DNA from: Stylophora pistillata
Taxonomy: Eukaryota
Length of the DNA: 64,000 bases
Direction: 5' to 3'
Assembly (NCBI RefSeq): GCF_002571385.2
Contig: NW_019217784.1
Location: 1,709,297-1,773,296 of the forward strand
Below the pieces are notes generated by a model. The model was not told where the DNA came from and did not search any database. It was given only the letters and a program-made list of their open reading frames with translations. This document shows, piece by piece, positions 12,001 through 39,100 of the stretch (within the stretch, counting starts at the first letter, position 1; each line of letters opens with the position of its first letter). The position numbers and the translations under genes are program-made.

Positions 12001-15000
12001 TGTCATGAATATAGTATGTCTAGCGTGACACACCATACATGGTGTGTCACATGATGTGTCTACATAAGGCAAGCATGCTTCAAGTAACTTTATTTTATAT
12101 CATACTTATCGTTACAGTTCATTAAACGCAAAATCCTAATATGGTGTCAGGAGTGGGATCCTGTGAAGACATTGGATCCTCCAGGAGAAGCATTTAACAC
12201 GTGAGGACATACCTTTTAACCAGCAAGAGTAGGGGCGCAAATAAAGCTCAATTATATCGAAGATTCGCAAAAAACATGGCCGATCGATTCAAACCACCGT
12301 CTATGGATTGGACCACCCCAGGGGACATTCACAAGCGTTTCAAACTCTTCTAGCAGAAATACGGACTCGTTTTCGCAGGACCACTTGACAAAGTTGAAGA
12401 GGCGAAAAAGGTGAGATTGCTGCTGTTATGGATTGGCGACTGAGGCCTCGAAATCTATAATACGACCACGTGTGCCAGCGATGGCGACAACCTCAAAATC
12501 GTCCCAGTTATGGCGGCGCTTGAAGCTTATACAAAGCCCCAAAATAATCATATCCTCGCTAGGTATCAACTCCGATGCCTAAGGCAGGGAGACAGACCAC
12601 TTGAAGAATTCGTAACCGAAGCGCGGCTATTAATAGAAGATGGCGGATACGATCCTGCCGTTAAAGAAAGAACCCTCCGAGACACACTTGTACTTGGTGT
12701 GACATCTGATAAAGTAATCAAAGATGCGATAGCACTCGGCAACCAGCTAACCTTCAAGCAAGTCTACGACCTAGCAAAGGTTGAGGAAAGCACTAAAGCC
12801 CATATGAAAATAATTAGCAAAGGCGAAGAGAAATCAGACCTTCACGCAGTTGATAGAAGACCCGCCCGTCCGACTAAAAACACTTCAGTTCACACACCAA
12901 ACTCCCCACCACGACCAAAGCCAAAGAGATCCTCCAAGCAGAAAACCTCGCCGATTGCAGTTCAAATCAAAAGGGTGCTTCAGATGCGGAAACACTCATG
13001 ACGAACAAGCAAGTTTCTCTGCAAAAAATTCAAAATGCAAGCACTGCAGCAAGACCGGCCACTACGCAGGAGCGTGCATGCAACAACGCCTCCAAAAGGT
13101 CCATCAAATCGTGAGTACCCAGAGTATCAGGGCCAAGACATCCACCTAAAGGATGAGTATCCCCACAAGGAAGGTTACGCTTACGCTCGTGATGAAAGCT
13201 CAGACGATCGAGGAAACTAGCGACACAGAACCCATTACTGTGTTCTTCGGAACTCTCCCTTCAGCAAAGGGCCGACAAACCCAAGGAATTTCACTTAACG
13301 CTATCAATAGCCACCCAGACAAAATCTTCGCCAAAGTCACGATTAACGAACGCCACGACATGAGCCTTAAAATAGATACGGGGGCGGACGCCTGCATAAT
13401 CACCACCACAGACCTCCAACACTTCCCCTTCCCAATCGCCATCGCTCTATGCAATAACGTTCTTAGAGGCTATGGAGGTTCTGAGATAGAAAACCTTGGA
13501 GTCACCACATTAAAGGTCTCTTTCAAGGACAAGACAGCCGATATTAGATTCAACATTGTGGAAGCCCCAGAAAGCTCATCCATGCTGGGGTGCCGAAAGA
13601 GCCAAGACCTGGGAATAATATCAACAAACTTATATGAAGTGAAGGTGTAGTCTGATCGTCCGGGTGAGTGTAGTCCTGAGAAGGACTGTTGTCGGTGGTA
13701 GTGACTGACGTTTCGACAACCTGTGCGGAAGTCATCATCAGAGTCAACTTATATGAAGTTAGCACCATCTCCCCAACCAGGACCGAAACGGAGGCACAAC
13801 GTGGTCAGCTATCCAAACTGACTGTCCTGGAAGAATAGCAAGATTGCTTCGACAAGCTGGGCTGCTTTCCAGGAGAGAAGTACCATATTCAGCTAATTCA
13901 CCACCCCGTTCCAGTCATCCACCCGCCACGCACCGTTCCAGTACACATACTACCCTTATACAAAGAGGAACTCAGCAACATGATTGCCGACGGCGTCATC
14001 ACAGCCGTAACCCAACCAACTGACTGGGCAAACTCAATCGTATGTAACATCAGAAAAACTCCCGAGGGCAAGAGAAAGATCAGATTTTGCCTCGACCCCA
14101 AGGAACTCAATAAGAACATACGCCGAGAGCACTACTACACCCACACCATCGATGAACTCCTGCCGCAGCTACATGGTAAGAAGTTCTTTTCCGTGGTCGA
14201 CACGAAGAAAGGTTATTGCTATGTGGCCTTAGACCACGAGTCAAGTTTGTTGTGCACATTTAACACCCCCTTCGGACGTTACCGTTTCAGACGTTTCCCT
14301 TTCGGGATCACGCTCTCCCAAGACATCTTCCAACGCAAGCTCGATGAAGTCTACAGGGGCATCCCCAATGTAATGGGGATTGCAGACGACATCTTCGTAT
14401 GTGGTTCAACCGAAGCAGAGCACGATCAAGCCTTCCGCGAAATGCTCAAGGCTACTCGTAAAAACAATGTCAGCCTAAATTCTGAAAAGCTACAGTTCAA
14501 GCAGACACTAGTCACTTTCTACGGACACACCCTGACAGAGAATGGGTTACAATCAGCAAAAGAGAAACTTGAGGCAATTCGCAATATAAAGAGCCCGTCA
14601 AACACAGGGGAGCTTCAGACTATTTTGGCGATAATCACTTACCTGAACCGTTTCTCGACAAAGTTGACAGACCTCACATCACCACTAAGAGAACTAACCA
14701 AAAAGCACGTGCGTTTCAGCTGTGAACTCCACCATCAACAGGCTCTCGATAAAATCGAGCAAGAACTCTGCACATCCCAACTTATCTCTTATTGTGACCC
14801 AGAACCGAATACACCCACAATCCTTCAGTGTGACTCAAGCAAAACAGGCATCGGGGCCTGACTGAGGCAGTTGGATTCCCAAGGAAATGAGCGCATCGTT
14901 GCGATGGCGTCCTGGTCACTCACAGACGCTGATTCAAGATATTCAAATCTTGAGCATGAATGCCTGGCAGTTACCTATGGATTGGAAAAGTTTGAGAACT

Positions 15001-16555
15001 ACCTACTCGGCCGAACGTAATCGTCGAAACTGACCATTCCCCTTTGGAACAAATTTTAAAGAAGAACATCAATGAGGCCCCGAGCCGGTTGCAGAGACCG
15101 CTCCTTAGATCGATGCTTACGATTTGACGTCAATGTGCAGTGCAGGCAAGGAAGGACCATTCCAGTCGCTGACGCCCTAGCGCGAGTTTGCCACAAGAAA
15201 ATCACACCCTCTGCCAAAAATATGACGGAAGACTCCATACCACAGCGTAATATCCACTTCACATCCACCCCTATTGACCTGACAGCAGTGAAATCCTCTA
15301 CCACATTAGATCCTACAATGAACCTACTGAAGGATATCATCTTCAGTGGCTGGCCCCCCTACAGAAAGCAATGCCCGTAGGAACTATGGGAATTTTGGTT
15401 CTTTCGGTGCGACCTCACAGTAGAAGATGGCCTAGTACTCAAAGGTGACAGGATCGTTGTCCCACCAACCATGAGAAATGAAGTCCTCCAAGCAATCCAC
15501 CAAGGGCATCAAGGAGAGAACAAATGTATTCTTCGAGCTAGAGAATCGGTGTTCTGGCCCGGCAACTCCACTGACATCAGGCAGATGGTGAAGACCTGCG
15601 ACCCATGTAACAAGCACCAACCAACTCAGCCAAAACTACCCCTCATACAACCAGACCTCCCTACCCGGCCATGGGAAAAACTCGGTACAGACATTTTTTA
15701 ATTCAACGGGGCGAAATACTTAATGGTCGTTGATTACTTTTCAAGATTTCCCTTGATAAGACTCCTCAACAACATGACCAGTCACACTGTGTGCAACCAC
15801 TTCGCAAGCATCCTAGCAGAATACGGCTTATCAACCCCTATCGTTGCTGACTTCGGATCTCAATACATCAGTGAAAGGTTCCAATCAAAATGCAAAGAAA
15901 GCGGCATCACATTATGTTGCAGTTCCCCATACCATCATCAAGCCAACAGCCTGGCAGAAAGAGCAATTGGAACCTGCAAGTCGCTATTGTTGAAAGCACT
16001 AGAGGAGAAAGAATGCCCGTACACAGCCCTATGGACGTACCGAATGACTCCTCTTGATGACCAAACACCATCACCCTACGAATATCTGTTTGGACGCAAA
16101 CCCCAAACAACACTCCCAGACCGAAGAAGTGCGCTGAAGTCCAAACACCCAAATAATGAGCTCCACCGGGAAGCTAACCAGGGACGACAAGAAAAGCAGG
16201 TAATATTCTACAACAGAAAGGCCGGCAGTGACAAGCGACCCCTTACCAACCGGGAATCATTATTTGTCTGGAACACCTTCAAGAATATCTGGCAGCCAGG
16301 AACCGTGCTGAATAGGCCAAAACCAACAGAACGCCCTCGAACTTACGCAGTAGACATCCAAGGAACAATCTACCAGAGGACTAGGGAACATCTAAGACCA
16401 AGGAATCAGAGCGAAACACATGTAACCCCACCAACCGGTAGCAACCTTCCACTTACAGTGGCCCCGGTACACAGCCCCAGGGATACACGTGCGTCCAATG
16501 CCAGAACAAACAGCCCCCCTTAGCCGGCAGAAGCCAGCCCTGAAAACAGCCATTA
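12001..16555 (+). mobile_element. Degenerate Ty3/Gypsy LTR retrotransposon (5' LTR, PBS, gag, PR, RT, RNase H, integrase; no 3' LTR seen)
   Basis: TG-started LTR 12001-12141; PBS TGGTGTCAGGAGTGGGAT (12142-12159, tRNA-Leu type); gag ATG 12276 with Zn knuckles CFRCGNTH/CKHCSKTGH; protease KIDTGAD; RT IADD; integrase HQGH..CDPC and ANSLAERAI in Gypsy order; many stops and frameshifts. Confidence 0.92.
13641..13745 (-). ncRNA. Short retroposon carrying an intact-looking minimal type I hammerhead ribozyme, inserted in the Gypsy pol
   Basis: Minus strand UGACU-CUGAUGA-UGAC...GUC-GAAAC-GUC^AGUCA, with stem I UGACU/AGUCA. 14-bp direct repeat aacttatatgaagt at 13627-13640 and 13746-13759; removing the insert restores the pol frame. 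Confidence 0.75.
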
Positions 16556-17581: not shown

Positions 17582-20500
17582 ATGATGAGCACAACATTTG
17601 CCACAATTTTCGTGTTGGCAATTTCGTATGTAACGATGTGCACTGCATATGAAGACGACAAAGAACCGATTTGGAATTTTGACGACATCCTATCCCAGAG
17701 ATCTCATGCTGAAAAGCAGCAAGATAGAGATGAGTCATCAGAAATTTTGAAATTCGCCTTGCCCGGTGTCCACCCGACGAAGGTAAAGAGAGCAGTGCGG
17801 TCTGGTTTATCAATGGTTTCTCGAAATTCAAACAGTGAGGGGTTCAATAGTCGTGAAATTTTATGTAAATGAAGTGTTTGTCTTCATTACATGCACGAAA
17901 TATATCACTCGTTTCCTGGCAAGATTTATGTACATCCTCATATTTGATCGATGTCGTTATCTGGCTGTTTATCTGTTATTATTACTTTTTTTTATCGAAA
18001 TTGGAAGTAATGCTTAAGAAAGAAATATTTTCGTTTCGTTTACTTTGTCGGGAACGAGTTGTTACAAGTTTGGACTATGGAGGAGACTAGGACGAGCTCA
18101 AGTTGCCCCTAAACTTCAGAATACCCAGCCACTCATTTAGTATATATTATTTTAATTTATACAGGATAGCCCCTTCAGTGAAGTAAACACTGGTATCAAC
18201 GGGGGTCCTGTTACCCACCCATCCCACCCGTGGGGNNNNNNNNNNNNNNNNNNNNNNNNNNNNNNNNNNNNNNNNNNNNNNNNNNNNNNNNNNNNNNNNN
18301 NNNNNNNNNNNNNNNNNNNNNNNNNNNNNNNNNNNNNNNNNNNNNNNNNNNNNNNNNNNNNNNNNNNNNNNNNNNNNNNNNNNNNNNNNNNNNNNNNNNN
18401 NNNNNNNNNNNNNNTCAATGGATAGAGCATGTCATTAAATAACACGTCATTAAATAAGAATAGGGTCTATCATGTTATGCCTCATTCTTCAAAGTTCTGA
18501 CACATGTACATGAGGTGGACGGGTATTCTGAAGTTGCTCCCAAGTTGCGGTGGATCCTTTCAAAGCAGTTTGCTTCTGCTCTCACCCAAAATGGTATTGA
18601 CTTGACAATCATAAAACCGTTCTTTTAAGAGTATTACTCAAAACAAATGGTTCCTTTAAAAACCATTGAAATAGAAAAGAAATATCACCAACATGTAACT
18701 TGAGTGTGATAATTTTTATTAGCATTATAGCTTATCACAATTTTTATTAGCATTATAACCACATCAATAACAATCAGGGCTCGACACTAATGGTAGCCAA
18801 GTAGCCACCGACTAGTAGAAATTCAGTTTTGGCTTATGGTTTTCCATTTCCACAATCCAGTTTGGCTAGTAAACAAACTGAAATTGTCATATCATCTAAG
18901 TTGTCACTAGCCACTTGGTTAGTAAGTTGAAAAGTTAGCATCAAGCCCTGACAATGCATGCATCATACATAGCTGCCACAACTTATTGAGCACAAAATAT
19001 TCCACATTGCAGGAAGACATGCACCTCTGTACTGCTGTGGATCTCCGTAGAAAGGAAGAATATATTGGTAGAGTGTTTTACAGTACATAACATTATGTCT
19101 AACAGAGCTCTAATTTTCCTATAGTAAAAAAATTAATACACAAAGATACTGACTAATTATTTTCTTTTTAAAAATAAATCGGTAGATCATGCAGTTCCCG
19201 TTCTTTTAACAAACATTTATCAAAGAGACCTAAAATCTTCAAGCACTTTAGGGTCAATACTTTTCAAAAGAAAATGTGTTTGACTTCACATCAAAATGCA
19301 TCAATAATTATTTAAACAAAATTAATATTACACATCATTACACTATGGAAAACAGGCAGAAATGTGTCACTGATGATTTGGCATTCTTTTCAGTTGCAAT
19401 TAAACCCCTTGTTGACATGCACACAGTCCACCATTTGATGATAGTTGGATGCTCAGAGCCAGCAAATTATGCTTTTGCTAATGATGGAAAATATTGGTAT
19501 GTTGATTAAAGGATAGTATAAAGTCAATAATGCTCTTACGATAACTAATGTTTTGCAGATGGCCTTCAATTGTAGCAAAGAAAAGCTTGGTTCAGTAGGT
19601 TTTGCCATGCAAGTACAGATCTTATTGAGGATAATACTTGTAAAATTAATAAATGAATTCCATGTTTCTGTGCATGTGTTCAGTAATATATGGCAGATAA
19701 TGTCAAAATGTGGTAAAACCATAATGGTGGCACACGAGGTGTCGCTGAGTATGTTGCCGTTATTTCCACAGACTCTGTAAACCCACAGCAACATGCAATT
19801 AGAATCAATTTGTTTTATATAAAAAAAAAGCAAAATGTTGGTGATGCATGGTGACACAAACCAATCAAAATGCACATTTAATTCACCTTATCATAAATAA
19901 CGTAATTACTTTTTCTGACTCATAACTAGCCATGGAGGGTTTTGAGTGACACAAAGTATAAAAATTACTGGAGTTCAAAATAGTTTTTGGCTTTGTGTCT
20001 TCTTGTTTGCTGTAAATGTTCTCAGTTAATACAATAACAGGTATTTGTTAATTAAGTATACAATTTTTTTGTTGTTTTTTTTTTTAGGACATGTGGAGAA
20101 AGTGGACTCAAAAAATGCAGCCATGGTTCTACTGATGAAATACTGTATGCTTGGGGAAGAAATGCCCCAGAGTTGGACTTACCACCTGGTACTGCATGTC
20201 AATATTCACCTATATCGTAGTGGTGTTTTCATCATTACTAATAATAGGAATGCTTAATGCCATTTTCACTGTGATGTGGTGGCATTTCTTAACCTCTTTC
20301 TCCATTACCAACTTCTGCAACAATACCTGGTAATTGCATGTTATATATCTTTGATCTGAGATAGTACATTAAATACGCTGAGAGAAAAAGTCATTCGAAA
20401 GTCACCTAAAAGACTCTTGTAGTACAAATAAATGTTGTGGCAATCAAAAATTAAATGTTTTTGGAGAATTTCTTAATTTAAATTTTTTATTTCTTCAACT

Positions 20501-23500
20501 CCTGCTGAAGAATTTGTTGCTAATTTTCTAGACACTGCCATTGAAGTGGGTGGCAAATCTGATCATAGTTACCTTGTCCTTGAAGTTCACTATGCAAGTG
20601 TAGACAAGTTTTTAGGTGAGTTTCATGTTTGGTCAATGGTGTTTCCTTCAGGTCCTTCTTGGTGGCAAATAAATGCAGATGCTAAGTTTAACAGTCTTTT
20701 AATTTCAGTTTTTTTTTGAGAGTTACAATTACATTTATGATTTTGTTTCCCCATCTTTATTGTTTCCTAGATTACAGCTGGTAAAAACTACATGGTTTTT
20801 TTTCAGGCCTTATTTCAACTACTACATAAGTAGGGTGCAAGGATCCCTTTTATACATTTTATGAAACGACAGTACACATATATGATCTTGATATGTTCAA
20901 ATTCATTGTTATCACTTGGATGGGTTCAAGACAAACCAATGTAATGACCAGATCCCAGCTGGCTTGTTGGCTCAGTTGTTCAAGCACTACACCAGCATCA
21001 CAGAGGCCATGGGTTCAAATCCTGTATGGGCCTGAATTTTTTTCAGGGCTTATATCCACTATTACATAAGTAGGGTTCATTACTGCGAGGATCACTTTCA
21101 TACATTTCATGAAGCCACAGTACACAGATGGGTATATGATTTTCACATATTCAAATTCATTGTCATCACTTGAACCAGTTTAATATGAACCAACATAATG
21201 ACCAGCTCCCAGTTGGCTCATTAGCTTAGTTGGTTGAGCCCTGCAACAGCATCACAGAGGTCATAAGTTCAAATTCCATACAAGCCTGAATTTTATTTGA
21301 GGCCTTATTTCCACTACTTCTTTGCTCCACTGGCTGCCGGTGGAGCAAAGAATAATCTTTAAGATTAATCTTACTTGTTTTAAGTTACTCAAGAATTTAG
21401 CTCCTGATTATTTTGTTGACCTAATTCATGTTTATGAACTTACGAGGTACCTTCGCTCATCTTCAGACAAGTGGCGTCTTATTATCAAACCCTATAACTT
21501 AAAGACATATGGTTTAAGGGCTTTCTCAGTTATTGCCCCTATACTTTGGAACGATTTACCTCTTGACATTTGTTCAATCGACGATGTAAACAAGTTCAAA
21601 TCTAGTTTGAAGACCTTTCTTTTTATGAAAGTTTATGAACTATCCTAGGTTCTCCATTTTGTAATTTTGTCATTATGTATAGTTATACGATTTTAATCCC
21701 TTTAAAAGCATTGTAAAGCGCTTAGCACTAAAAAGGATAGGCGCTATATAAATATTTTATTATTACTATTATTATTACTACATATGTAGGGTTCATTACT
21801 GTGAGGATCACTTTTGTACATTTCATGAAACCGCAGTACACATACATGATTTTCATATATTCAAATTCTTTACTATAGGACTGTGTTAATGAATCTTCTA
21901 ATATCAAATCTATAACTTAGAAACTTGCTTTTTAAGGGACAGGGGATTCTAACCAGTTGTTGATAACTGGGATTAGATGGAGCTCATGGTCTAAAATCAA
22001 TCCTTATCTGACTTGTAATATTGATTGTTCAACCTCTCCACAGCTGATCCTACTCTAAAAGATTACGCTGGGGCAGAATTGCACATGACGTCAGTACGGT
22101 GAGTAACTGTAGTTGAAAATTATTTCAGTTCCTCAAGGTGTTGCAACAATGTAAGCCTTGTTCAAAACTTATAAGTGCAAATAGGGGGAACTGAAAAAAC
22201 ATTTAACATCATAATGTTGGAGTTTGTAAAGTCTGTTTCATGCTTCAACCAACTCAGCTTTGAGCAATAGCAAAATCAAAAAACATTAATACTTGCCACA
22301 ACAAAAATATGAAGAGGAAAAAGTTTATTAATTTTCTCAATTACTCCTTGTCTTTTTCTTCCTTATTTTTTTCCCTTCTTTTTTTTCTCCCCTCCCCTCC
22401 CTCAGATCTTCATGTGGTTTCTTGTCTTTCCCTCCAATTCAATTTCTTTTCTTGACCTTCTCCTCCCTTTACTGCATTATAATTGGAAAAGGTTATGAAC
22501 CTATGAAATGAATTCATTACCTCCTGGCCCTAGGGTGGTAATTTGTTCTTCCTAAAAATAATTTGCATGTAGTTAGCTGTCACAGTTACTGTAGGTACTT
22601 GTTTGAAGTGACTTTTAGCTAAACCTAGCCTCTACATTCCTAATCTCAGCCATGAAACCATACCTCAGCCATGACACAATACTTTTTACATTCTCTTCCT
22701 AGTCCTGGTGGAAAAGAATTAATGGGAAATCTAAATAATCAAGTGAAATGAAACCTTCTTAAGTTCAACATGAACAAATGAGTAAAAAAATTCATTACTG
22801 TTCCCAAGGTTTCAGTGGTTCTGCTTCTCACTTTTGCTTCACAGACCCAGTCAACTGGCTGCTGTATTTCTCTTACAACCATTTGGAGACATTCCACCAA
22901 AGAAGAAAGGTAAACTAAAATCTTTGAGGTCACTCTCCTGCCTGCTCAGCAGATCACCTGCCTTTTAACTAAATACTGTGTTTCTTCTTTATCCAGCTTG
23001 GCATTTTGACATTGGATGTCAATATCATGATGGACCAGTCTTACATCCTTTTGACTTTAGAGTCCACACTCATGGCATCGGTGAGTTCCACTGTGCTGAT
23101 AACATTTTAGACCATATTCAGTTTCCAGTCATATGAAGGAGGGAAGTTTTTCCCATCTTGGGGTTAAGGGTTTTCTTTTTTTCCCCTTTTACCCATTAGT
23201 ATGACTAGCATCAAGTTTCTGAAGGGTTTGTGAAGGGTTTATAGGGCTAACAGAGGGTTCATAAACAGTGAATTCCCTTTACAAGTGACTCCTTTTATGT
23301 TCCTTTAGGGGTATTTTAGGGGTATTAAGGGTATTTTAAAGTCCTTTTAGAATAATGGTACATATGAGTCATGAATATGTAGCATGTTGCTACAGATGTT
23401 TTTTAGTTGATAATTTGCAGATGAATGATTATTAATGGGCAAAATTTACAGACTGAACAAGATTGGCAAATTCAGTATTTCAAAAATTATTTGAGAGGGA

Positions 23501-25289
23501 TTCCTGAAATCCAAGGTCTTCCGAGGGATTCTTTCAATCAGTGTACCTTTGTGACAGATAAAGAATTCTGTTTATCACTTATCACTCTTCTGGTCTCTAA
23601 AAATATTTTGGCGATGTTTCTGTGTGTGGTTCTCCGTTCTTTTAAGGTTTTGAATTCTGGTTTTCAGATTTAATGATATTAATGCTGGCATTTGATTGTA
23701 AATCCACTTCTGTGCCTTGTAACCTGTTAATTTGAAAACACTTATTTGTATAAATTAAGAGAAAAGTAACTGATTCAAAACAACTTTTCAAGTTTAAAAA
23801 GATTTAAGGATGCTGGTGTAAAGTTTGGATATCATATTTGCATACTAAGTTGAGCTTAATTCTGGAATTGCTCCAGGGACGGTAGTGACTGGCTACAGAA
23901 TACGTGATGGAAAATGGACTCTAATAGGTAAAATGGATCCACAGCGACCACAGGTAAGTTAATTCTTCAGCAGTTGCATAATTGACTTCCATGTAAAGTA
24001 AAAATATAAATTTCAAGTTTGTATAAATTACCCATCACCTGTAGGAAATTTGGCACTGATAAGTAAATATTCATCCACTCTCAAAGATCCTCTCTGAAAG
24101 TCTGTACACAGTAAACAGAATTATAGAGGAAACAAATGGTTTATTTCATTACAATCTCATATTTGGTTTAATTTTTCAGGCATTTTACCCAGTTGATAAT
24201 CTAGTGGATATAAAAAGTGGAGACACTATAGTAAGCACTGGTATTCTTAAACAGTATAAAGAAACTATAATTCCTACCTAATCTTTTAAGTCTCCTGCCT
24301 TGTTTTTTCCATCTCCTCACCTCTCTAGCACTCGACTCTCATGTTTACTCTCCAGATCTCCATTGTCACCTCTCCTGTTCTTCCCAACCATACATATCCA
24401 CCCTCTTGTTTTTCATTTCTTGTAAATTTCATTCATTTTGTCCCATGTGTGGTGCATCTCCAACTTCAGACTTTACAACTGAATTTTTTGGATGTGCTTC
24501 TAGAAACATAGATTAGGTTTGCTTCTTTTTGTTAAAGCATAAAATAATCGTTATTTACAGGCTGCCCGTTGCACTTTCAATTCAATGCAGAGAAACAGAG
24601 TAACACACTCAGGGTATGCTTGTTTAGTATCATTGTGACCATCATCTTACCAGACCAGACCAGACTAGGGAAAAGGAACTGTGGTGTTGAACTAGTTAGG
24701 GTATTACAAAATAATTTGGTCTCATGAAAAGAGTTGATAAAGTAAATTGCTTGGCCACGTAGTTTGGTGGCAGTGTGGTAGGGTGCTGGACTTGTAGTTC
24801 AATGTCCTAGGTTCAAGTCCTACACCCTGCTACTCACTGGATTTGTTCTCGGTAGCCCCAAGTTCAACTCCCCAGCTGCACTTTTTAAATAACTTAATGG
24901 TCTTCCTCCTGCCAGTGGGGATTTTCAAGCACTTGTTGTCTAGGCTCGAAGATATTGCCTTGTTAGCGCTCTAAAACTTGAGTATACATAAAGTTTATGT
25001 ATGTATGTTTTATGTAGAGAGTTTCTTAAGTTGATGTTTTGAGTACTTAACTTAGAAGTGTATTTACTTGCACAAACTAAGGGATTCTATCTCTATTTCT
25101 GTGACCAGATTAACCCATGAAGATGAAATGTGCAATTTTTACATGATGTACTGGTATGATCCAAAACAAGGAAAGGCAGCCAGCAATCACAGAGACTTCT
25201 GTCAGCTTCTGGATCCAAAGTACCTTGATTACCCAGCAGATTCTGATGTTCCACTACCAACTAAAAGAGCAAAACTGGCAATGAAATAA
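17582..25289 (+). CDS. PHM: Monofunctional peptidylglycine alpha-hydroxylating monooxygenase paralog B (369 aa, secreted)
   Basis: GT-AG exons 17582-17782, 19013-19067, 19394-19496, 20088-20188, 20532-20615, 22044-22098, 22845-22909, 22997-23080, 23877-23953, 24180-24230, 24561-24613, 25109-25289 join to 1110 nt in frame. Signal peptide; CuH HH and VHY; CuM RVHTH and EMCNFY; LYAWGRNAP; PQRPQAFYPV. Confidence 0.92.
18236..18414. other. Assembly gap (N run); single-N joins also at 17249 and 45507
   Basis: Seen directly. Confidence 1.
20790..21870 (+). repeat. Old tandem tRNA-derived repeat array interrupted by a LINE tail
   Basis: Units ccagctggcttgttggctcagttg...ggttcaaatcctgta...cctgaattttttcagg with degenerate A/B boxes; related to the 25864-26407 and 31333-31838 elements. 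Confidence 0.6.
21322..21780 (+). mobile_element. 3' fragment of an L2/CR1-group LINE
   Basis: LHWLPVEQRIIFKI...RAFSVIAPILWNDLP...FKSSLKTFLF* followed by a 3' UTR and (att)n tail. Confidence 0.8.
22521..22562 (+). pseudogene. Dead remnant of alternative exon 7a in PHM-B
   Basis: LLALGW*FVLPKNN aligns codon by codon to ILAVSWSLVPPKKQ of PAM exon 7a (TCA>TAA). Same position between exon 6 and exon 7b, after a pyrimidine-rich tract; no donor GT. Confidence 0.7.
24765..24930 (+). repeat. tRNA-derived SINE (Nin-domain-like body)
   Basis: A box-like tggcagtgtgg, B box ggttcaagtcc, then ttcaactcc...tcctgccagtggggatt. Confidence 0.5.
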
Positions 25290-30105: not shown

Positions 30106-33100
30106 ATGATCGGGAAATTCGCCTCCGTTTTCTTTTGGACCGTTCCATTAATAACGATGGCTATCTCCTACGGAGACTACGATGAACAGTTGAGAGATTA
30201 TTACGATAATCTGTACCAAAGATCGTCTGTTAAAGAGCAAGAAAGTGAAGGCAAATCTTCAGAAATACTGAAGCTTACCATGCCTGGCGTTCATCCAACG
30301 AAGGTAAGCGGTGCTTTCTTTAATTATCCCTTTTACAGATTATTTTTCGAGCTCTTCGAGTTGATATCTCAGGGAATTTCATTTTGGAAACAGTTAGAAT
30401 TTTTTATAAGATGTTATAGCTGAAAACGAGCCCGAAGGATTCATTTTACGGGAAGAAATGATTAGTTTGTTCCACTTAATCTTCCCGACTCATCCGAATC
30501 TCGATCGTCTTCCATGGTTCAGTTATTTTCTATCACCTGGTTTCGATGGGCGGCTAATTATTTTTTATATATTTCGCCTTGTTACACTTGAAGAAAAGCT
30601 AATCCGGAGTTTTTAAAATTTTTTCTTGAATCTTATAGAAGGACATAAAGAGGAAAAGACAGAGTGTACATAGTAGTTTTGTGAACGTCAAGATCGTGTC
30701 CTGAAATTTTTTCCATGTTTGTGCGCCAAAATTAATTGCTCGAAAGTGCAAATCGTACGTAAAAGTTTAACAGAGAATGATTTAAAGCCTCGATCTTTGT
30801 GAGTACAACAGTTTCTCCGTTTTAACCAAATAGCTTGAATTTCAACAATAATAATAATAAAATGGAGGAGATGTTTGTCGAATGAATTTGGCAGTTGACC
30901 GCAGGCATATTCATAAGCTAAGCTTTTCATGTGCTGTCAATTATATTTCATTCAATTAGCATAATCATTTTCCGTACAGCTGTTTCTCTTAATTTATTCT
31001 TGTGTGAGCGATTTTTTTTATTTTTTGGAAACCGTATGAACCACAAATGGAATGAGAAAAAAAAATTACGCAACCTAAATATGATTGATTTTAAGTGAAT
31101 TCGAATGAGAGGTTTATTTTTTTAATAAAAATCCAGTGAGTTTGACAAAGTGATGCAAAACACCACCGAAAAATTAAACTTTCTTCATGCAACAAGAGAT
31201 AACAATAACTCAAGTGCTGGATGACCGTGAAGAAACTGTTTTATATCACGCTTGCTTGCTTTGTTTTTTTGTGGAAAAGCTCGACACTTATTTCACCAAA
31301 TAAATATTGTTTTACTCAATATTAATAACTTTACATATGATGCACGATCCTTTGCAGTAGATAGCGCTATTTATGCAATAGCGAAAATCAGACCTGAAAA
31401 AAATCAGCCCTGTACGGGATTCGAACCACTGACCTCTGCGATACTAGTGCAGCGCTCTACCAATTGAGCTAACAAGCCAACTGGGAGCAGGCCATAAATA
31501 GCGCTATCTACTGTGAAGGATCGTGCATCATACGTATTTAATACCGCAGTTCAAAATATATGAACTTCATACATTCATTGTATCTCATTTATCATCACGG
31601 GTTTATTACGAATCAACTTAACGGCCTGCTCCCAGTTGGCTTAATTGTTAGCTCAATTGGTAGAGCACTGCACTAGTATTGCAGAGGTCAGTGGTTCGAA
31701 TCCCGTACAGGCCTGATTTTTTTCAGGTCTGATTTTTGCTATTGCATAAATAGCGCAATCTACCGCGAAGGATCCTGCATCATAGGTATTTAATACCACA
31801 GTTTAAAATATATGAACTTCATATATTCATTGTATCTGATTAATAACTTTCCTGCAAGTCTTTACCAGTTCAACTTCTGTGCCATTAACATAGATTATTT
31901 AATAGAAATGGAGAGCTTTATCCTAGTGATAAAAAGAGGATATTTATACCAAGAGATGTGAATTGAAAAATCTTGTTTATAACATCTGGGCTCATCACTA
32001 ACGTTTCAACTTACTAGTCAAGTGGCTAGTGACAACTTAGATGTTACAACAATTTCAGTCTGTTTACTAGTCAAACTGGCAAGTGGAAATCGAAAACCAC
32101 TGGCCAAAACTGAATTTCTATTAGTCTGTGACTAGTGGGCTACCATCAATGTTGAGCCCTGTACGTGCATTAAATTTAAAAATAATTTGTAAATAATGTT
32201 AAGATATATACATGATATGTGAAATTCTTGAATGAATGAAAATGAATTATTTTTTAGGGATGGTTATCAGTCATTCAGTCATATTGTAGATATATTGGGT
32301 GCTGCAGTTTTAGTTTGCAATTCATACAATATAATTATATTGCAGCATGATACCTACCTATGTACTGCTGTGGATCTCAGGAACAAGAAAACATACATAG
32401 GTGGGATATTTATTATTAATTTTACTTTTGTGTAACTGAGACTAAGTTTTTGATGAGAAGGAAAAAAGTAAAGATCAGGGTTTGGTTCTAAAACAATATC
32501 TGTGCATTATTAATCATTGTGGACGAATACAACGGGGCAGGTTACCAAGAATTTGTTGATAGATAAGAAGTTCAGTGTTGTTGATGTGAAATGTATGAAG
32601 AAGAGCTGAAAATTGAAGGATGATACAAAGGCTGATAGGATACAGTTCTAACGGGGAGGAGTTGGACAAGCATAGCTCTGGGGTGAACATTATATGGCAT
32701 ACATTTCTATAATGTTAGAACATAACCATGTCATTATAAACACCTTTGCACAGAGCTGAACAACACCACAATTAACAGCTTTCTGTCTTAATCATTTCAG
32801 CTGGATTTAAACCTCATGCTGAAATGCACACAGCACATCATATGTTATTGTTTGGATGTCCAACACCAGGACAAAATGCTTTAGCAAGTGAAGGAAAATA
32901 TTGGTATGTTAAATTCTTAATCAAATGTCGATATGCTAGAGGCATTAAAATTTGTATGGCCAAAATGTAGTAAATTTTATGGCACATGGCTTTCATTGTA
33001 GGAGAAAGCACTGGTTGAAAGATTTTGCTTTCCGGTTCCTCTTTACACTGCTTCTAATAACGTACCCTGTTAAGACAATTTTTTAATTTATTCAGTGCAA

Positions 33101-36100
33101 TCACATTTTCTCAGATCACCATTCTGACAAGAAGAGCTTTAATTTATAGAAAGTAAAGCCAGGTATGAGTATTGCTCAAAATGTTTTGAAAGTTCTTGCT
33201 CTCTGATCAAGTCATCTCATGTAAACAGTGTTGTTGTGCAATTAAAGTTATTAAAAATAAATAAATACATGCAATATGCAAAGCTTTTATTCCCCAGTAC
33301 TGTTTATTTACATTCTTAAAAGAAAACTTAGTTTAAATGTTGCAATATTGTGATGAAAAGTGTTGTAATATTGCAGTACAGGCTTTAAACAATAGTTGAC
33401 TATTGATAATTTGTTAAATGAATGCTTATTAAATATATACTTAGATAATTGTAAGAAATAGACAACTTTTTTGAGAGAAATGTTTCGGCATGCTTATGCC
33501 ATCTTCAATCAATGAGTAACAGAATGTGAGTAGATGATAAGTGGATGAATAAAATATTTACAGTATGATGTAATACAAAAACAGGTACTAATTGCAACGT
33601 GACACCAAACATCAAAGGTGTGAACTAAAATGCAAGAAAAGTGTATAATGCTGTAATTGTTTGCTAAGTTCAGGTTTGATCTTATTTATATAAAAAGCTT
33701 CTTTGAGTTTGACATCAATTGAGTTGTTAGCAGAATCCAGAATACTAAAGCAAGAAAGGGAGTATTTGTTCTTGCAAGAAGGAGATGTGTTGAAATGCTT
33801 AAAAATATGTGAGCTTTTATCGCTCTCCATGTGCTCCTTTATCCTAGTAGAGAAGTGGCGACTAGTTTCGCCAATATAACGGGAATTACATCCTGCACAA
33901 GAAAATTGATAAACTACCATGGCTTTTAGATTTTTGCCACTACTACGACCTTATGGAAATACTTAGATAAGTTCTTAATTTCTAGGAACTGCGGTGATAT
34001 GGGATCTGGTGTATGTCGTGGTGCTGGGGAGAGAATATTGTATGCTTGGGGAAGAAATGCTCCTGTATTGAAGCTGCCAAAGGGTAAGGCCAGGAAATAA
34101 CTTGTTCCTGTTGTCATCATCATCACATCACATATCTTCCTAAAGGTAATGGAGTGTTGGCGGGGGAGGGGGGGGGTTGAAGTGGCTCACTGTATACCCT
34201 GCCAAACACATTCCTCCACTCAAATTACAGTTTATTGGCTTAAGAAAACCTTTTTGCATTCTTTGTAAGCAGTAGTGTCTAGTTTGTCAACCATCTGTTT
34301 TTCTTGAAAAGAATTCATTAACAGGCAGTCTTTCAAATGCAGTTGTTACTTGTACACAATGGCAGTCAGGCAGATGAAAATGTCATAATTACTAAAAGAA
34401 GGAATGATCTAAAACCACCTACAACCATCTAAAACCACCTACAACCACCCACAACCACCACCTGTAACCATCTAAAACCACCTACAACCACCTTCAGGAT
34501 ACTATTGTGTGACAATTTGTGACAATGTAAATGCACACTGGAAATGTTGTTGCATGTCTCGCATGTCATGACCAGGGAAAACAAGAGAATTTTTTACACG
34601 TAGTTACTAAAACAAGGAATGACCTACAGTGAGCTACTGTAAGATCCCTGCAATGAAGTAAATGAAGATTTTAGAAAAAAGGCGAAAAAAAAAAACAAGA
34701 GACGTGTGCATTAATGTAACGTATTTGAATTATGTGTGCATTAACATAACAGAATTTTTAGCTTGGAGATAAATTTACGGTGTATTATAATGAGACATGT
34801 CTAATGACGATAATGATAAAAAAATGCGAAAAACCTTTGGCTCAAGATGTCTTTGAGGGTCTTATATAAGAAGCCTCCCATAATTTTACACTTTCATGAG
34901 GCTATGAGTCATATTTGGCCTGTCAACACCTTTTTCTCATTGATATTTTCATATCAAAACCCTTAATAAGGTCACATCACAGCACCGCGAGACTATGAGA
35001 TGTATTTGGCCTGCCAACACCTTTAACTCATTGATATTTTTAGAGAGCAAAACAAAAAGGCCATCACACCATCATGGGGCTAGAAAGTCACGCAAGCCAC
35101 GCCACAATTTTTCGTAACACTCACAATAGCTCCCTGTAGGTCATTGTAGCTCATTGTAGGTCATATTGTAAATCGTTGTGGATCATTTTAGGTCAGTCCT
35201 TGTTCCCACGGTAGCTCATTGTAGGTCATGGTAGGTCATTCCTTGTTTTAGTAAAAAATTCTCTTGGTGTTTTTCCCTGGTCATGACATGTGAGACATGG
35301 GACAACATTTCCGGTGTGCATTTAAATTGTCACAAATTGTCACACAATAGTATTCTGAAGGTGGTTGTAGGTGGTTTTATATGGTTGTAGGTGGTGGTTG
35401 TGGGTGGTTGTAGGTGGTTTTAGATGGTTGTAGGTGGTTTTAGGTCATTCCTTCTTTTAGTACTTACGATGAAAATGTAGGTTAAGAACATATATTATGT
35501 TTTTGGTCACAAATTCTTCAACTGCAGTAGACTTTGATAATTACAGTTGTTGATTTGATTTTATAGATGTTGCCTTTGAAGTGGGTGGCAAAGTTGGTGT
35601 CAATTATCTTGTACTTCAAGTTCACTATGGAAAAGTGGACAACTTTGTGGGTGAGTTTTATGATAACTGTCTACTTCATGTCCCTCCTGACAGGGATTTA
35701 AGGCCAACAGAAAAATTTTTTAAAATTTCTTGTGAGTGTGCATCTGAGGTATATGTTTGAACTTTCCACAGCAAATACTTCTCTAAAAGACTACTCAGGA
35801 GTGGATCTTCAAACTACAAGAGTGCAGTAAGTACTTTTATGGGTTAATTGCTTCCTAGGTAGTGCAGGAGTCAGGGCAGAGTGACACCTAAAACTCACCT
35901 TAAGTAGCTGGTCATACATTGTTTAACCTATTAGTTGTCATGGAAAGATAATCACAAACTGAAGACTGAGGTAAAAAGACTTGGTGTTGTCCAAGTGCTG
36001 GTTTAAGTACCAATAACTAGAGAAAACAAATACTTGCTGTATCAAAGACAAATGGGCTGCTATTATTTTCTGAAATAGCTTTATAAGATTGCTTCCCCTC

Positions 36101-39100
36101 CCATAAATTTCTCTTTCTGTCGTCTTCTCTTCCTTCATATTTAGCCATTCTAATAGCCATTTGTACACAAAGCTTACAAATGACTATTAGAATGGGGCAG
36201 AATATGCGAATGTGTCACTTACTCAGATGTAAACAAATCGATATGTCAACAGCAGACCAATAATTTTGATAGCAACCTTCCAAAATTATATGGGAATGCC
36301 TCTATCACATTTCCAAAGTATTATGCTGCAACATTAAAATTTAACTCAACCTTTTTGTTCAAAGGAGTTTCGAGTTTAATTAAAATACTCGTAGCAGTTA
36401 GCACATGTGTAACCGAGTTAAAGCTCTTTGAAAGACTAAAGGTGTAACTATGAGTGAAGACGCTTAATGCAATTGCTTTTCCGCGATCATCTTTCGCCAT
36501 CATTTGCATTATTGTGGAATATTCTTCGCCATTCCTGGGTATATTTTGTTTTTAACAAAGTGTCCAAGCCATAGTCATTCTTAAATACATTTTTAAGCCT
36601 TCATTCTTCTCACTGCGAGCTGAAAATGCTTAATGCAATCGCTTTTCTGTGATTATCTTTCACCATCATTTGCATTATTGTGGAATATTCCATGCCATTG
36701 CTGGGCATGTTTTATTTTTAACAAAGTGTTCAGGCCACAATTGCTCTACAATTTCAAGCCTTCATTCTTCTCACTGTGAGCCGTCAGTATTTATATCGTT
36801 ATCTATCGCTAAAATGAGTAAGCGGCGAATTTTTATAGGGGAATGCGAAACATTGTTTTCGTGACTGGCCAGTTGTTTACTTTTCTGATGGTTTTACATC
36901 TGATCTGTTTGGTGACTACACAAACATTAATTTGTAAAAATCATTGTGTGTACACCCCTGAACGTTAAAAATATATCAAGTCGAAGGAACAGTTTTGGTC
37001 CAAGTCCACATTTTTGACAACAAAATTTAAAATATATTCATATTGGTTTAAAAGGTGAAGAGTTCGTAACACATACAAAAGCTGTCTTTTTTTCTCAATA
37101 CTGACATCTCGCGCACAAAATGAGAAGACTATATGACAGCTTGAAATTCTATTTGAGAACGATTGTGGTCACTTTTTTAAAAACAGAATTCAGTGGTCAC
37201 CTTGTTAAAAACAAAATATGCAAGGAAACAGGCAAAGGAATATTCCCAAATAGTGCAAATGATCATGAAAGTGATTGCTAAAAGGCAATTGCATGACACT
37301 CAGTAAGTTGTAAGATGACAAGTCATATGTTATCAAGTGTCTGACAAAATAACAGTTTTCAAAATTTCCAGTCTATATTCTGTGCCCAATCTGCATTCTG
37401 CAGTCTGCATTTTGTACCTAGTCTGCATTTCGTACCCGGTTTGCAGTCTCTATTTTGTACTGACCGATAGCTAAAATGTGAATTCTGACCATTCACCCAA
37501 CATCACCCCAGCAGTTCAAAGTAATACCAAGTAGTTTCAACTGTATCTGGGAGTCACTCATTGGAATTTAATTATGTTCAAAACTCATTCAAATGCAATG
37601 TGTCCATGACTTATTCATAGTTTCCTTTGATTGTTTTCTGTTACCTTTCCTCCCTTCCTTCTTTTTCTCTGTACCCTTCCCTCCCTCCTGTTCTTTTTTC
37701 TTCACTCACCCCCCTGTCTTTCCTACATCATCCCTTCATTTCAGTTTCTGCTTCTTTTCACCTTGCTTGCTTCCTTCCCTCTTTCTTTTTGTTCCCTTCT
37801 TTACCACTTTGTCTTGTGAGGAAATAGTCACAAATAAAACAGATTCCCTTGCACCTCCTGCTACATGTAGGCCGCAGTACAAGGCTGGCATCAAGATCCT
37901 GGCTGTTAGTTGGTCACTTGTTCCACCTAAAAAACAAGGTTGAAATAATGAATTAAATTACTATGAATGTATTTTGAATTATAACATAAAATCAGTCACT
38001 ATAAAACAAGTAAACTATTTTTAAAGTGACAACTTCAAAGTATAAAATGTTTATTTCAGAAATTAAACGCGACAGTAAAACTCAGGTTTTAAAAAATAAA
38101 GATCAATTTTTTATTGCATGATATTAAGTGTATAACTTGCCTAATGCTCTCTCCTTTTCTTTGACTAAAATGTCTAAATTGTTTTCTGAAACTAAATGTT
38201 GTTTGGACATGACATAAACTAAAATCCACAAATTTTCAAAAATGCATTCAATTGAAGGACTGGTATTTAAACTATACATATAAAAGTTCTAAAATCTAAA
38301 AATGTTATTTATGACTTTTCATCCTGTTGTCAAATTTCCATTCATCAGTTAAGAGGTTCTTGTAGATCAAAATTACTGCAGTTGTTTCTGCAGTAAGTTG
38401 AAGATAAAAACATAATTAGTATTAGCTACATGGTGGAACACCAAAAAAGGCTAGTCAATGGCCAGTCTGATGCAAATCTTTGTAATTATAAAACTGTTGC
38501 CAACAAAATGAGTTGGTGATAATGTGGTGACTTATTCACTTTCCTCTTTGAGATGCCAAAGAAATCATTTCCACATGAAGTCTGTTAATCTAGGTATAAG
38601 AGCTGGATTTTACTCTTAAATTTGCACTTTCTATGGTGATTACACCATCCTTCAAAGAACTTTGAAACCTAAAATGTGGCTTAATAGCCAGATTGGACTG
38701 GTTGTGTGTTTGCAAGATATTCTTCACTTCAATCTTTCTGTTTTTTTATTTCTGACAGTCTCCTCTCCAACAAAGTACATAAATGCTTTCCCATTCACCC
38801 ATCAAAATTGTCAGCATCTTAATTTTGGTGTCAGTTAATGGCTGACCTGTTGTCTGGGGCAATGCAAACACTGTGACTTTTTGGTCTAAAATAATCATTC
38901 CTCTTCTAGCCTGCAGTTAGTTTTTTTTTTTGTGTGTGATTTTGCTTGTAGTTTTAGGTGTCTTAATTGCTGTTGTTACTATTTGTTTGAATGTAGCATT
39001 GTTATATTTGTTAGTGAGGAAAGTTTCTCATGATATCATGATTGGATTTGTGAAACAGCTTAATACTTCACACTAGGGCCAAATAAAGCCACAACTGAAT

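Follow-up and report, generated by a model that had tools for sequence, protein, structure and literature searches.

The stretch analysed here, called the window, comprises 64,000 nucleotides of the coral Stylophora pistillata (contig NW_019217784.1, positions 1,709,297 to 1,773,296) and contains PHM-B, a gene for a copper monooxygenase of the PHM class, upstream of a bifunctional PAM gene. Comparison of the proteins suggests that the main unit of note is a PHM clade shared by Stylophora and Pocillopora, within which PHM-B has undergone a further drift or retuning, asymmetric in that it affects the half of the catalytic domain that carries the CuH site (the CuH half). Ligands, clamp residues and substitutions are given in rat PHM numbering, except where PHM-B numbering is stated.

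The PHM-B gene and its product

PHM-B (17582-25289, forward strand) is formed by 12 exons, all with AG/GT ends, which joined give an open frame of 369 codons. The translation is identical, letter for letter, to RefSeq XP_022798394.1 (P0128); a second annotation, PFX34858, missed exons 2 and 11. Exon 1 (17582-17782) carries the start codon, a hydrophobic N-terminus that is likely a signal peptide and the start of the catalytic domain. Exon 2 (19013-19067) holds T78M (19019-21) and Y79H (19022-24), both private to PHM-B. Exon 3 (19394-19496) holds the CuH ligands H107 and H108 (19429-34), the clade-wide M109L (19435-37) and L110M (19438-40) and three private changes, A106V (Val106 in the rat), F112V and one P>S. 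The Cys loop equivalent to rat 126-136 is in exon 4 (20088-20188), with the private charge changes N128K, A136D and K137E (PHM-B numbering), and exon 5 (20532-20615) contains the clade-wide Q170E (20582-84) and the CuH ligand H172 (20588-90). Exon 6 (22044-22098), the linker between subdomains, and exons 9 (23877-23953) and 10 (24180-24230) were placed by the model and by spliced reads. Exon 7 (22845-22909), derived from PAM exon 7b, is the pocket strand (rat Y205-S209) with Q208 at 22876-78. Exon 8 (22997-23080) holds D238 (23053-55), R240 (23059-61) and the CuM ligands H242 and H244 (23065-73), exon 11 (24561-24613) holds I306S (24609-11), and exon 12 (25109-25289) holds L308, H310, M314 (25128-30), N316, Y318 and the stop codon (25287-89).

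Pfam identified PF01082 and PF03712 in the product (76 and 132 bits, both above the cut-off) and no other domain. The PAL (NHL-repeat) domain is absent, the two PHM domains standing alone, and Pfam gave no DOMON domain; this and the comparisons with DBH below place the protein outside the DBH, TBH or MOXD1-like class. Unlike rat PHM/PAM, it also lacks a membrane anchor: hydrophobic windows of 15 residues begin only at residues 1-9. The AlphaFold model (mean predicted local distance difference test score 76.9) has the same two-subdomain fold as the catalytic core of rat PHM (EC 1.14.17.3; PDB 1OPM, 1SDW, 4E4Z), with a TM-score of 0.83 by target and 38% identity. Foldseek matched it to rat PHM structures at E 1.8e-29 and to DBH far lower, at 3e-16, and the sequence comparison gave 6e-71 for PHM against 1.6e-13 for DBH. 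DBH and DBH-like proteins (PDB 4ZEL), 24% identical, have Glu at 170, and several Stylophora DBH-like genes have Leu or Ile at 109; PHM-B differs from DBH in lacking DOMON (by Pfam) and in keeping the peptide-carboxylate clamp.

The six copper ligands H98, H99, H173, H245, H247 and M317 (PHM-B numbering) correspond to rat H107, H108, H172, H242, H244 and M314, and R243, N319 and Y321 to R240, N316 and Y318. All are kept, and Q272 is shared as well. The roles of the ligands and of the R240/Tyr318/Asn316 clamp in PHM have been described (PMC12164859). The alignment by HMMER pairs H71, L100, E171, Q211, D241 and S309 of PHM-B with rat Y79, M109, Q170, M208, A238 and I306, in agreement with the correspondence drawn by eye in an earlier reading made from the DNA letters (the sequence-only reading). 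That reading had described the frame, the five His and the Met ligands and the R240/N316/Y318 equivalents as intact, and both the gene model and the rat alignment bear it out. The substitutions it named lie at the codons listed above, and the corresponding motifs are present in the PAM gene: DTYLC (32349), HHML (32836), LQVHY (35614), FLLAS (about 39396), FAFR (40323) and TDIG (41496).

The differences from rat PHM are Y79H, M109L, L110M, F112V, Q170E, M208Q, A238D, I306S, G308L and S310H. Coral PAM has Ala and not Met at 208, so the pocket change there is A208Q. M208 and I306 are positions that we take to belong to the substrate pocket, these labels being absent from the PHM papers searched for them. 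In the pocket of PHM-B, I306 and M310 were lost and L308 and F213 (PHM-B numbering) gained.

In public RNA runs, spliced and correctly stranded reads were identified along the exon chain. GT..AG joints were recovered for nine introns and a shifted one for the exon 8-9 junction; the exon 3-4 joint was not among the matches listed. At codon 71 of PHM-B (His79) the PHM-B letters were carried by 40 of 41 reads in run X22, 13 of 23 in X23 from the same study and 12 of 36 in X24 from another, the rest being of PHM-A type; the number of read starts is small, so the A/B ratios are rough. A fourth run, of unrecorded library type, gave contigs without any other letter there. His79 as an assembly error or a colony-private allele is ruled out by the reads in three RNA runs from two studies. 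Expression, which the sequence-only reading had referred to RNA data, was thus found on exon 2 in all three raw RNA runs, on a par with PHM-A. Whole orthologue open reading frames of two other clade clusters were identified on Logan contigs of 1.4-2 kb, which are likely spliced transcripts. In two runs, reads that are B-type in all other respects carry a non-synonymous variant at 19456 (32/52 and 6/12), which changes residue 107 of PHM-B from Glu to Gln. The main text of the S. pistillata cell atlas (PMC8162421), in the part available, makes no mention of amidation.

Origin from PAM and the clade shared with Pocillopora

The parent gene is the neighbouring bifunctional PAM, whose PHM half comprises 12 exons at 30106-42242 on the forward strand, with PAL exons then to about 47600. 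Its product is a scleractinian soluble PAM (XP_022792772) with orthologues in Pocillopora, Oculina, Desmophyllum, Acropora, Montipora and Porites; it has Y79, M109 and Q170, PAL and an alternative exon 7, whereas PHM-B has one exon 7 and a stop at the dibasic site. All 11 intron phases are equal between PHM-B and the first 12 exons of PAM, and the two are 64% identical over the catalytic domain, with a synonymous divergence (dS) of 0.72 and a non-synonymous one (dN) of 0.26. The PHM-B stop codon occupies the position of the Lys-Arg pair that precedes the linker to PAL, and the Pocillopora orthologues terminate at the same point. This stop, the shared phases and the identical Pocillopora end show PHM-B to be a partial tandem duplicate that lost PAL. 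Two Pocillopora annotations fuse the orthologue and PAM into one protein of 1088 aa, which points to a likely position upstream of PAM, in the same order and strand, in that genus and therefore suggests that PHM-B, rather than PHM-A, is in the ancestral position.

The clade set contains 18 rows: PHM-B, PHM-A, six of a second cluster and ten of the Pocillopora cluster, whose alleles are not independent. Residues were compared in 160 proteins, minus 14 fragments or mis-annotations and 2 fusions. The stand-alone Pocillopora proteins (XP_027044886, XP_058957446), annotated just as PAM-like, are orthologues of PHM-B, 82% identical over the domain; common to both are L109, M110, E170, Q208, S306, L308, H310 and the C-terminal end, and the differences are Tyr79, Phe112 and Lys238, the last being Asp in PHM-B. 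The core of the clade is formed by L109, M110, Q208, P209, L308 and H310, identified in 18 of 18 rows together with R240, N316 and Y318. E170 is present in 17, the exception being a PHM-A annotation lacking exon 5. Position 306 is Ser in 12 rows and Pro in 6, and position 238 is Lys in 10 and Asp in 8, Lys being the Pocillopora state and Asp that of Stylophora. All 19 anthozoan PAM rows retain Y79, M109 and Q170.

Support for the clade is 100/100, and its stem measures 0.53-0.67 substitutions per site; the three pocilloporid-group PAM rows have a stem of 0.05-0.14. In trees without DBH rows it is nested among scleractinian PAMs (100/98). Because the branch is long, the trees do not fix the position of its root within Scleractinia, and a date of the duplication on the pocilloporid stem is not demonstrated: sisterhood with the pocilloporid-group PAM rows is neither rejected (approximately unbiased test, p=0.41) nor supported. 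Ten anthozoan PAM/PHM rows share 115 invariant columns, of which the clade leaves 87 unchanged; 17 are variable in it and 11 are constant but different, among them 109, 110, 170, 308 and 310. After the stem the clade evolves at about twice the rate of PAM (82-85% against 92% identity to P. verrucosa), and the differences between P0002 and P. verrucosa fall in PAM-invariant columns less often than expected (8 against 17.1, p=0.001). A stem burst followed by purifying selection in this way is the usual signature of a specialised duplicate, but gives no indication of which job that would be. Clade members beyond Stylophora, Pocillopora and one further cluster were not found among the matches listed, an absence weakly shown by four lists, three of them word-seeded and one clustered at 50%. 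The literature searched contained no description of the clade, and the available part of bioRxiv 10.64898/2026.10.05.756843 has no mention of PHM.

PHM-A, the recent inverted duplicate, keeps Tyr79; only its exon 1, at 4932-5132 on the reverse strand, is within the window, the other exons being located further upstream. The stretches compared lack exon 5 and the end of exon 12, and exons 7-8 and the exon 6 acceptor appear in two copies (about 1701000-1702600, L004/L005, G000:C1). The doubled and missing exons are likely assembly artefacts beside gaps, which would explain why the annotations P0003 and P0016 are garbled. RNA reads with a synonymous variant at 20578 and no other difference suggest that PHM-A does possess exon 5, with Glu170. 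Upstream of the ATG, PHM-A and PHM-B are similar over about 100 bases only, and the promoters therefore likely differ. Between the two head-to-head genes are broken retroelement remnants (5923-7046 and 12444-16523), namely a reverse-transcriptase fragment and gag, protease, reverse-transcriptase and integrase-like pieces, as judged by eye from translated open reading frames.

The PAM gene has an alternative exon 7a (37871-37938, forward strand), a second pocket strand that annotated isoforms swap for exon 7b (39374-39438). Annotated PAM isoforms of Stylophora and Pocillopora use either one, and one Montipora PAM is of 7a type. A similar splice variation is reported for the Calliactis gene. By tblastn, neither a second exon 7 in PHM-B or PHM-A nor a third in PAM was identified. 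Read-through of the exon 12 donor (42047-42262) meets a stop within a few codons, and the annotated or Logan isoforms P0151, P0152 and P0155 are short PHM-only products of the PAM gene. The PAL half is broken in the assembly: exons are apparently missing at a one-base gap (45500-45510), and some 420 bases containing the late PAL exons occur twice at 47060-47830. The RefSeq Stylophora PAM models are truncated (475-476 aa), and those of Pocillopora have 702-703 aa.

Changes private to PHM-B and their frequency in other PHMs

The sequence-only reading had treated Y79H, M109L and Q170E as one coordinated set, which is not supported. Y79H was identified in one of the 18 clade rows, PHM-B itself, with Tyr in PHM-A and in all Pocillopora rows, and arose after a duplication with a dS of about 0.07; M109L, Q170E and the pocket changes are shared by the clade. 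Between PHM-A and PHM-B, dS is 0.074 and dN 0.026, a dN/dS ratio (omega) of 0.35 (p=0.007), with 0.49 for residues 50-182 and 0.09 after 182. When three outgroup rows are used for polarisation, the B branch receives 11 amino-acid changes and the A branch 1, with 1 unclear (11 vs 1, p=0.006); synonymous changes, polarised with a distant PAM outgroup, number 5 on B, 4 on A and 3 unclear. Of the 11 B-branch changes, ten belong to the CuH half, T78M, Y79H, F112V and those of the 126-136 loop among them, and the remaining one to the tail; by codons, the clustering is 10/104 against 1/157 (p=0.0006). The CuM core (183-330) has no B-derived amino-acid change, yet six synonymous A/B differences. Three further tail changes are suggested by the PHM-A annotation. 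Gene conversion is not supported as the reason for the conserved 3' half, since the gene shows synonymous and intron differences over its whole length.

A ratio near 1, named in the sequence-only reading as the mark of a relaxed copy, is not seen overall, although on the B branch omega reaches about 0.7 in the CuH half. The ten changes of this half hit invariant columns at the blind rate (4 seen, 3.5 expected), and blind changes would have a 52% chance of missing H107, H108 and the four cysteines (residues 55-153). Y79H is a late private change within a relaxed or retuned half-domain, next to a constrained substrate-binding half, which argues against both a coordinated package and a dying pseudogene.

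The frequency of each substitution was taken from a wide set of 123 domains with all six ligands, from 163 domains of 149 cluster representatives among the matches listed. In 107 other PHMs, position 109 departs from Met in 32 (31 Ile, 1 Leu); in the same proteins Glu170 is present once and His79, Ser/Pro306, Gln208 and Asp/Lys238 are absent. Over the 123 domains, non-Met 109 occurs in 51, L109 in 11, Glu170 in 8, His310 in 31, Ser/Pro306 in 3, Arg238 in 5 and His79 in 3 (7 gaps, i.e. 3/116), with no case of Gln208 or Asp238. L109 and E170 were identified together in one other protein, P0280, which has two domains, and the triple H79+L109+E170 in none of the domains listed. The loss of M109 is common among ordinary PHMs, and Q208 and D238 were found nowhere else in this set.

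Bell et al. reportedly found in 2003 that Q170E cut the Vmax of rat PHM about 20-fold, and Y79W about 200-fold. Kline et al. are said to have found in 2013 that M109I abolishes low-pH inactivation. TBM Y216, which we take to be the equivalent of PHM Y79, reportedly makes electron transfer rate-limiting when replaced by Ala. M109 faces away from copper and was proposed as a low-pH ligand (PMC2988203). Its loss being so ordinary, M109L is weak evidence for the shifted pH profile suggested in the sequence-only reading. Glu is also the residue at position 170 in human DBH and in DBH-like genes of the Stylophora genome, and within the wider family Glu170 is therefore no bar to catalysis. The Q170 of rat PHM belongs to a water network tied to peptide binding (PMC6123673) and to a proposed electron path, H108-Q170-water (PMC12164859).

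Precedent for PHM variants and for a PHM beside PAM is found in the multiple PHM isoenzymes of Lymnaea and in the stand-alone PHM of the scorpion venom gland (PMC6669573). In gastropod PHM paralogues, whose origin is independent of the coral clade, Y79 gives way to Leu (5 named rows of 6). The gastropod rows P0026, P0061, P0080, P0090, P0113 and P0293 combine Leu79 with Gly238 and, in those inspected, also with Met110, a separately rebuilt CuH second sphere. P0015, a JGI record, is a coral-type bifunctional PAM in which both CuM histidines were lost (Lys, Tyr) and the PAL half looks intact, possibly a PHM-dead, PAL-only paralogue. P0307 (labelled Oscarella pearsei) and P0313, two PHM-like domains that have Glu170 and have lost R240 and N316, are more plausible cases of a genuine shift in substrate class.

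Proposed function and alternative explanations

We favour, at about even confidence, a reading in which PHM-B is an expressed stand-alone PHM, still directed to glycine, with a shifted peptide preference inherited from the clade and a freely changed CuH half, and slower than PHM-A. A lower rate would be likely because the CuH half has changed freely since the recent duplication. The first 12 exons of PAM were duplicated in tandem up to the dibasic site; a stem burst placed L109/M110/E170 around CuH and Q208/S-or-P306/L308/H310 around the side-chain pocket, followed by purifying selection; and after an inverted duplication copy B took 10 CuH-half changes, Y79H included, and none in the CuM core. 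The protein would enter the secretory route, bind two coppers, grip the substrate carboxylate by R240/Y318/N316 and hydroxylate the glycine alpha position at CuM with O2 and a reductant, the product passing in trans to a PAL such as that of the neighbouring PAM. Glu170 would put a fixed negative charge in the cleft between the coppers. More tentatively, the pocket of Q208, P209, F213 (PHM-B numbering), S306, L308 and H310 may alter the penultimate-residue preference of the clade, favouring residues other than bulky hydrophobic ones. The clade looks like an extra pocket variant fixed as its own gene, since PAM varies the same strand by exons 7a and 7b.

What survives of the neofunctionalised enzyme proposed earlier is an intact, expressed gene with most of its changes fixed in a clade under purifying selection, although not as one package. 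Its polar pocket is better described as remodelled: I306 is lost, but L308 and F213 are gained and position 238 is Asp or Lys by genus. Several points weigh against the favoured reading. The dN/dS of PHM-B against PAM is 0.36, not above 1, and the contrast of non-synonymous to synonymous changes between the B branch (11:5) and the A branch (1:4) is not significant (p=0.12), so that relaxation and positive selection on the B branch cannot be told apart at these counts. PHM-B remains a paralogue of an enzyme that has been studied thoroughly, and most of its single changes have precedent, each of them except Q208 and D238 being present among the 123 domains, so that some may be neutral. The cleft-facing side of the residues was taken from strand alternation and not from coordinates. 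No clade orthologue DNA was found in the 50 loci of a metagenome scan, where the best full-length identity was 49%.

A specialisation in expression alone, with a PAL-less and separately regulated PHM useful in some cell type and kinetics like those of PAM, is possible but rather unlikely. The active-site changes would then be tolerated or compensating (M109L with L110M, I306S with A308L), in line with the share of full-ligand domains that have non-Met 109 (51/123), His310 (31/123) or Glu170 (8/123), with the unconserved charge at 238 (Asp in 8 and Lys in 10 clade rows) and with the stand-alone PHMs found beside PAM in scorpions and crustaceans (PMC6669573). However, the PAM gene itself already yields PHM-only isoforms (P0151, P0152, P0155), so a plain PHM copy adds little, and the fixed changes cluster in the cleft and pocket, at residues that do not vary among other anthozoan rows, with Q208 in 0/123 of the domains listed. 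An adaptive retuning of PHM-B, in which the ten CuH-half changes shift reductant use, redox potential or pH range and give A and B different jobs, seems quite unlikely. It would account for the clustering in this half with none in the CuM core, in a gene expressed as much as PHM-A and without signs of 3' gene conversion in synonymous or intron divergence, and His79 does occur in 3/116 other domains; but omega in the CuH half is about 0.7 and not above 1, the changes do not avoid invariant columns, a blind process would spare ligands and cysteines in 52% of cases, and the duplication is recent and seen in one species.

A move of the clade to non-peptide substrates (N-acyl-glycines, other small carboxylates) with a DBH-like second sphere is very improbable. 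The clamp of R240, N316 and Y318 is kept in 18/18 clade rows, the clade is nested in coral PAMs and the Foldseek match to DBH is far below that to PHM, even if Glu at the Q170 position of human DBH, the HHL, HHI or HHM and E-[IM]-HY motifs of DBH-like genes in the same genome (the latter where the exon was captured) and the lost hydrophobic residue at 306 point that way. Least probable, and only barely credible, is an early pseudogene or catalytically dead copy. The excess of B-branch amino-acid change at conserved sites, including Y79 and F112, and the existence of a twin with the ancestral sequence would suit it; there is, however, no stop, frameshift or splice defect, PHM-B was expressed in the 3/3 raw RNA runs, dN/dS is not uniformly near 1, and the CuM core is free of B-derived change in spite of six synonymous A/B differences.

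A model of PHM has domain closure driven by the loss of net positive charge in the cleft, to which ascorbate gives one negative charge (PMC12164859), and a slow peroxide shunt is described for rat PHM (PMC9064607). As speculation, Glu170 might bear on the charge-closure model and the released CuH half on the shunt. A bolder version of this, which we hold to be highly improbable, has the clade PHM replace the ascorbate anion, required for domain closure in the open-to-closed model, by a cleft charge of its own (Glu170, plus Asp238 in Stylophora) and serve lineage-specific amidated peptides, for example cationic defence peptides like damicornin. In PHM-B, with the electron-delivery half released and the catalytic CuM half kept constant, turnover would then bypass the Tyr79/Gln170 electron path, either in a closed binuclear state or with a different reductant or by the peroxide shunt. 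Damicornin is C-terminally amidated and cationic (PMC4881601), and as a clade substrate it would be only a lead.

The mechanism of PHM is debated between long-range electron transfer via H108-Q170-water and charge-driven domain closure (PMC12164859). PAM-PHM (Y79/Q170), PHM-A or Pocillopora PHM (Y79/E170) and PHM-B (H79/E170) form a natural series at the debated positions. If the shift in specificity is true, these corals would possess an amidation enzyme devoted to peptides of their own, derived from a splice-level pocket variant that turned into a gene.

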